Assembly (NCBI RefSeq): GCF_001677475.2 | Contig: NZ_CP015229.1 | Source of the DNA: Escherichia coli | Lineage (GTDB): Bacteria > Pseudomonadota > Gammaproteobacteria > Enterobacterales > Enterobacteriaceae | Strand: one strand, 5' to 3' | Length of the DNA stretch: 64,000 bases | Shown: positions 3,801 to 4,684 of the stretch, in pieces | Numbering within the stretch: position 1 is the first letter of the stretch | Layout: every line of letters starts with the position of its first letter | Translations under genes and position numbers: made by a program | Notes under the pieces: generated by a model | What the model was told of the DNA's origin: nothing | Seen by the model: only the letters and a program-made list of their open reading frames with translations | The model's database searches: none

Positions 3801-3877
3801 GCGCCCTTAGCTCAGTTGGATAGAGCAACGACCTTCTAAGTCGTGGGCCGCAGGTTCGAATCCTGCAGGGCGCGCCA
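3801..3877 (+). tRNA. argU: tRNA-Arg (anticodon UCU)
   Basis: 77-nt sequence GCGCCCTTAGCTCAGTTGGATAGAGCAACGACCTTCTAAGTCGTGGGCCGCAGGTTCGAATCCTGCAGGGCGCGCCA; cloverleaf with TCT anticodon; matches recalled argU. Confidence 0.95.
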
Positions 3878-3922
3878 TTTCTTCTTCATTTATGCCCGTC
3901 TTATCCGTTTCCGCTTTGCCCT

Positions 3923-4684
3923 TCACCACATCACTTTTTGTCGCTGTTTGGCGAGATAATTCAACGGTGTCAGGCCGTAAAACGCCTTAAAAACAGAGAT
4001 AAAGTACGACGTGCTGCTATAGCCACATAATTGCGCTACCTGAGTGATATTTTTGTTATCCATCAATAACATCTGTACGGCGTAACGCATACGACACTCT
4101 GTGACAATCTGGCTATAGCTGGTATTTTCGTTTTTTAATTTCTTTTTGAGCAGGCTGGGGCTTAAACATAGCGAACTGGCGACAATTCGCAGATTCCAGT
4201 AATGCTGAATATCGCTTTGAATAATGCGGCAGACGCTGTCGCGGACGCTGCTGCGTAAGATATACATCAGTAGGGCAATAAACCGCGATTGCTCAAGAAA
4301 GTTAGACAATACGGTAAAAAGCAATGCGCGCGTCAACTCCGCTTCGCAGGGTTTGCTGGGTTGCTGCTTGCTGTGGTTGGCGGCTAGCCGGAACACTTCC
4401 GGTGTACGGCTATGACAAGCGATAACCGGGGTAGCCAGCCGCGACCAGGGCTTTACGCAGGTTAAGTTCTTATTTAAAAACAACAGATAATCGTTGATGA
4501 TGTTGCGGTTGATGTGGGTGATTAATACGTGATTTAACGTTGAGAGTTCAATGACGTTATTGTTGCACGCGAAGGCGGCCAGGTAATTTTTCGGAAGGGT
4601 AAACGTGGCATGGTTATTGACGCTTACCTCTACCTCTTTTTCGGTCAGGATCACCACGCAAGGTTCACTGCTGCTCAATTGCAT
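3923..4684 (-). CDS. envY: AraC-family transcriptional regulator EnvY
   Basis: 253-aa ORF with C-terminal AraC-type HTH; recalled as EnvY; stop codon only 45 bp downstream of argU. Confidence 0.85.
   Translation of the reverse strand: MQLSSSEPCVVILTEKEVEVSVNNHATFTLPKNYLAAFACNNNVIELSTLNHVLITHINRNIINDYLLFLNKNLTCVKPWSRLATPVIACHSRTPEVFRLAANHSKQQPSKPCEAELTRALLFTVLSNFLEQSRFIALLMYILRSSVRDSVCRIIQSDIQHYWNLRIVASSLCLSPSLLKKKLKNENTSYSQIVTECRMRYAVQMLLMDNKNITQVAQLCGYSSTSYFISVFKAFYGLTPLNYLAKQRQKVMW

Follow-up and report, generated by a model that had tools for sequence, protein, structure and literature searches.

Sequence evidence for an intact, unoccupied attachment site of DLP12-type phages at the argU tRNA gene of Escherichia coli

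Gene content of the argU locus

The locus was analyzed within a window of 64,000 nucleotides of Escherichia coli DNA (64 kb; "the window" refers hereafter to this whole stretch), in which argU was the sole tRNA gene found by ARAGORN. The gene (positions 3801-3877, + strand) encodes an intact tRNA-Arg(UCU) with anticodon TCT, and its counterparts in homologous genomes are annotated as tRNA-Arg or argU; the Rfam tRNA model matched positions 3801-3874 with 72.1 bits. A candidate sigma-70 promoter of argU was located at 3742-3769 (+ strand), consisting of TTGACT and TATAAT separated by a 16-nt spacer and agreeing with the consensus at 11 of 12 positions. The same sequence, with no difference, was found in K-12 attL and in VCSW7, and the element would be expected to drive the expression of argU.

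The tRNA gene is followed by a spacer of 45 bp (3878-3922, assigned to neither strand), and then by the stop codon of envY (3923-4684, - strand), which encodes an AraC-family regulator of 253 aa, is convergent with argU and shares 99.6% amino-acid identity with K-12 EnvY. The position of the tRNA 3' end (3877) and the 45-bp distance to envY, as proposed in the first-pass annotation, were both confirmed by ARAGORN, by the open reading frame at 3923-4684 and by the stop codon TGA, read as tca on the + strand at 3923-3925. A gene annotated as envY occupies the corresponding place in VCSW7 and in O157:H7 Sakai. No notable RNA structure was detected in the spacer at 3878-3922 (fold z-score 0.67), and a terminator scan gave no match between 3878 and 3960.

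The left bacterial neighbor of argU is fimZ (2926-3558, - strand), the response regulator of the sfm fimbrial cluster (NCBIfam FimZ equivalog, 445.7 bits); VCSW7, Sakai and K-12 have the same gene annotated at the equivalent place. To the right of envY, the next bacterial gene is ybcH (4867-5757, - strand; DUF4434; NCBIfam PRK09936, 520 bits), with synteny kept in K-12, VCSW7 and Sakai. Altogether, the gene order in the window comprises sfmD, sfmH, sfmF and fimZ to the left of argU, and ybcH, nfrA, nfrB and cusS to the right.

Two further observations were made on the annotation of the window. The mechanically called reading frames of fimZ (2926-3621, 231 aa) and sfmF (2282-2923, 213 aa) reach upstream of the starts annotated in reference genomes, which give proteins of 210 and 171 aa, respectively; since the NCBIfam models align only from residue 22 and residue 43, translation probably begins at the shorter starts. 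In addition, the stretch between ybdK and entD gave two matches to the Rfam sok antitoxin RNA (25326-25481 and 25829-25985; 84 and 87 bits), spaced by about 500 bp, which implies two putative tandem hok/sok-type loci between these genes.

The att core and the structure of the junction

Whether argU is occupied by a prophage is a textbook polymorphism of E. coli, the empty state being about as frequent as the occupied one, and the relation of B-O-B' and P-O-P' sites to attL and attR is the classic Campbell picture. In the K-12 derivative MC1061, argU is separated by 15 bp from intD and the DLP12 genes, and the order of the K-12 locus is argU-intD ... appY-ompT-(47-bp partial argU)-envY, where the partial argU copy at attR is pauD. 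The K-12 layout given in the first pass, with intD after argU, and appY, ompT and a partial tRNA before envY, was therefore correct according to the K-12 loci. The integration of DLP12 at the 3' end of argU, with an attR of 47 bp, is described in PMC6379469, where Lindsey, Mullin and Walker 1989 is cited for the argU attB of DLP12; PMC2947995 and PMC2617782 held no information on argU.

The att core in the window (3833-3879, + strand) spans 47 bp, from the anticodon loop to 2 nt beyond the 3' end of the tRNA, and is common to attP, attL and attR of DLP12-type phages. In a four-way alignment, the core was identical at 47/47 positions in the window, K-12 attL, K-12 attR and the attP of phage Kati, and the core of the phage 2G7b attP was also 47/47 identical to window positions 3833-3879. 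The arms differed in the expected manner of the four sites, with B-O-B' in the window, B-O-P' in K-12 attL, P-O-B' in K-12 attR and P-O-P' in Kati attP. Thus, the left flank and the tRNA of the window corresponded to K-12 attL, and the sequence from the core onward to K-12 attR, with a single substitution in the 45-bp spacer, which constitutes the bacterial right arm (B') and is found in K-12 attR after the partial tRNA copy. The flanks of the window were unlike either arm of Kati attP, both arms being bacterial in the alignment. The tRNA gene and the 47-bp core are shared between the K-12 DLP12 site and the window, whereas the K-12 site holds a 21-kb prophage and that of the window is unoccupied.

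Since both arms and the core fit the B-O-B' arrangement in this alignment, the segment 3801-3925 is, with very little doubt, an intact and unoccupied attB for DLP12-type lambdoid phages, located in the 3' half of argU and embedded in the ancestral order sfm-fimZ-argU-envY-ybcH-nfrA, and nothing in the sequence speaks against this reading. At such a site, a phage tyrosine integrase of the IntD family recombines the 47-bp core common to attP and the 3' half of the tRNA gene. With these 47 bp supplied by attP, insertion restores the complete tRNA gene at attL and leaves a 47-bp partial copy at attR. The window records no such insertion, with one core, bacterial arms on each side and phage DNA absent. 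Judging from the identity of its core, the argU site in the window is probably still competent for integration.

Search for prophage remnants

The absence of an integrase and of a duplicated tRNA 3' segment, reported in the first-pass annotation, held across the 64 kb by segment search, local alignment, tblastn and blastn of DLP12. The 45-nt tRNA 3' segment gave one match in the 64-kb window at up to 3 mismatches, with no second copy. No partial core was found in the flanks, within 1.5 kb on each side, where the best local-alignment scores (9-11) did not exceed those of shuffled sequences (10.6 ± 1.2), nor was there one in the spacer (3878-3922). Searches of the window by tblastn gave no match to K-12 IntD or OmpT, and AppY matched only its paralogue EnvY (44% identity); blastn of the 21-kb DLP12 sequence against the window also gave no match. 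The reading of the locus as an empty site, put forward in the first pass, was supported by these results together with the alignment to K-12, in which the junction linked the bacterial arms of attL and attR through a single 47-bp core, with no scar.

Phages carrying the core and the O157:H7 locus

The 47-bp core was present in 17 deposited phage records. Phage Kati (PP925833) showed the order appY (100% amino-acid identity to K-12), ompT (99.7%), core and integrase (99.2% to IntD), while the order in phage 2G7b (NC_049954) was hydrolase gene, ompT, core and integrase, the latter with 99% identity to IntD. As the gene orders indicate, living DLP12-like phages carry ompT and appY as cargo next to attP. 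The attP cores of Kati and 2G7b are the same as window positions 3833-3879, whereas the flanking ompT (plus appY or the hydrolase gene) and int are missing from the window. In the Kati record, the argU 3' segment contained in attP (locus 2962-3045) is labelled "tRNA-Pro", ompT is given as "hypothetical protein" and appY as "transcriptional regulator"; such labels look like annotation errors or under-annotation.

The locus of O157:H7 Sakai (ECs_R0030 / ECs_0598) resembles that of the window, with fimZ (sfmZ), argU, 45 bp, envY, ybcH, nfrA and nfrB in the same arrangement and 98.45% DNA identity over 11 kb; beyond nfrB the two diverge, with an ISAs1/Rhs region in Sakai and cusS in the window. 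The ompT gene of Sakai (ECs_1663), together with a hydrolase gene, lies at the right end of the lambda-like prophage Sp8, by minE, about 1 Mb from the empty argU. The ompT-hydrolase module at this place (NC_002695.2, locus 19645-22269) is the same as that of 2G7b beside attP, and no argU core was found near it. This suggests that the ompT cargo module has passed between lambdoid phages that integrate at different places.

Distribution of the empty junction

Of 5426 complete E. coli genomes, 2534 (approximately 47%) had a contiguous empty junction when searched with a 300-bp query, and 2458 gave a contiguous match to a 2.9-kb query from fimZ to ybcH. Regarding the origin of the window itself, no complete RefSeq E. 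coli genome among the 5426 searched was more than 98.2% identical to its first 25 kb (positions 1-25000), and the window was about equally far from the K-12, O157 and B2 loci (97.6-98.5%). As judged from these identities, the source strain belongs to an E. coli lineage without a representative among complete genomes. The exact NfrA protein of the window was found in 78 blocks of the genome collection, and the exact NfrB protein in 31343 blocks, the latter being too conserved to discriminate. All 24 of the contigs with identical NfrA that were read showed the empty argU arrangement. Four loci with identical NfrA had 99.4-99.98% DNA identity to the window, and the draft contig GCA_019142445.1 was 99.98% identical to it over 18.7 kb.

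A scan of GTDB species representatives for the core yielded four useful Escherichia loci, with contaminant contigs disregarded. In E. albertii NBRC 107761, the order nfrA-ybcH-envY-argU-fimZ-sfmF is kept and an integrase is absent. The argU-envY gap of this genome is AT-rich and about 710 bp long (locus 5470-6176), as compared with 45 bp in E. coli; it contained no integrase and no core repeat. Within it is an ORF of 160 aa (5597-6079), of unknown function. Given the length of this gap and the presence of this ORF, a junction of exactly 45 bp may be a trait of E. coli and not one inherited from the ancestor of the genus. The argU-envY neighborhood, on the other hand, is an old chromosomal order, as it is kept by E. 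albertii and many E. coli, and the empty state is an ordinary one for the species and already known biology. The occupation of argU is likewise old and frequent, given that the representatives of three other Escherichia species have integrase C-terminal remnants adjoining this gene. Short contigs in assemblies of Segatella copri, Streptomyces triticisoli and Collinsella sp. also carried E. coli argU, intD and ompT sequence (88-100% identity), and are almost certainly E. coli contamination.

Relationship between the empty site and the OmpT and AppY genotype

The first-pass annotation had deduced from the empty site that the strain lacks the OmpT protease and the AppY regulator, a step for which the window by itself is insufficient. 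To evaluate this deduction, the location of both genes among the complete genomes has to be considered. Sequences of ompT were found anywhere in 3095 of the 5426 genomes (3079 near full length), counts which leave out distant omptins such as ompP and arlC. At the argU locus, ompT of all types adjoined ybcH in 2668 genomes, of which 1583 had the K-12-type arrangement ompT-core-envY, so that 2668 of the approximately 3079-3095 ompT-positive genomes carry the gene at this very place. The appY gene was less widespread (837/5426, 15%), and both DLP12 and phage Kati have it adjacent to ompT. Taking into account that neither ompT nor appY was found in the 64-kb window, it is likely that the empty site marks a strain negative for both OmpT and AppY.

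Several results nevertheless weigh against this reading. Sakai has the same empty site and yet carries an intact ompT in prophage Sp8; at least 411 genomes have ompT away from the argU/ybcH locus; and plasmid copies of ompT occur, in 25 places. Among the 2534 genomes with the empty site, between about 187 and about 427 (roughly 7-17%) still have ompT, a bound which follows from the fact that just 224 genomes are neither empty nor carriers of ompT at the locus. As a general rule, then, the step from empty site to lack of OmpT is contradicted by Sakai and by the genomes with ompT elsewhere: the absence of OmpT follows from an empty site only in probability, and the rule fails in a well-known strain. 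The absence of appY from the strain is likely on the basis of its frequency across genomes, as the gene occurs in only 15% of them.

Origin of the empty state

The sequence of the junction fits a site that was never occupied and a site cured by precise excision equally well, and does not separate them, because precise Int/Xis excision regenerates exactly this sequence. The first-pass annotation had opposed a never-occupied site to a deletion scar; the scar is rejected here, and the dichotomy omits precise excision.

According to the cured-site explanation, argU was occupied by a DLP12-type prophage in an ancestor of this lineage, and attB was rebuilt exactly when the prophage left by precise Int/Xis excision. 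Such an event is compatible with the sequence, as site-specific excision leaves no trace, and functional phages with a matching attP and integrase exist. The high frequency of occupation is also in line with it, with argU occupied in about half of the E. coli genomes, in addition to the remnants in three other Escherichia species. The same ambiguity is stated for the lineages of Shigella and EIEC in a review (PMC5723341). Against this, positive evidence of a past prophage is absent and every contig read from the lineage of the window is empty; moreover, the empty order is common to E. albertii and 47% of E. coli, so that past lysogeny is unneeded. Former occupation followed by curing is therefore considered unlikely.

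A narrower version, in which a poorly sampled lineage came to have the empty site by recently losing an OmpT-carrying DLP12-type phage through precise excision, is more doubtful still. If true, the recent loss would parallel the condition of ompT-less Shigella and EIEC, and the lineage would be a naive recipient, open to conversion to OmpT+ AppY+ by living phages such as Kati. That Shigella and EIEC lack ompT and DLP12 is credited to Nakata et al. 1993 in the review PMC5723341. The Shigella and EIEC chromosomes are like the window in being devoid of the DLP12 ompT region, and the same two histories, never lysogenized or excised, are considered for them (PMC5723341). Nothing indicates that the window derives from Shigella or EIEC: IS elements are absent from it, the sfm, ent and cus clusters are preserved intact, and a pathoadaptive meaning is not implied.

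Finally, an imprecise deletion of the prophage, IS-mediated or by illegitimate recombination, which would leave remnants or cut neighbors as exemplified by UPEC 536 (truncated integrase, tail-fiber remnant and ompT, with envY, fimZ and sfm genes lost) and by the integrase C-terminal remnants of the three other Escherichia species, was rejected as extremely improbable, given that neither the tRNA nor the 45-bp spacer is damaged, that envY and fimZ are of full length, that the junction is base for base the attB predicted from attL and attR, and that partial core, phage DNA and the remnant genes expected of a scar are all absent from the window.

Implications for strain typing and lysogenic conversion

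The most probable reading of the locus remains that of an intact attB in the ordinary, empty state of the E. coli chromosome. Given that ompT is a cargo gene beside attP in living phages, and is also carried by prophages at other sites, as in Sakai Sp8, an empty argU site should not serve as a proxy for the OmpT genotype. The argU site of this strain may rather be regarded as a potential landing pad at which phages with ompT and appY could bring about lysogenic conversion.
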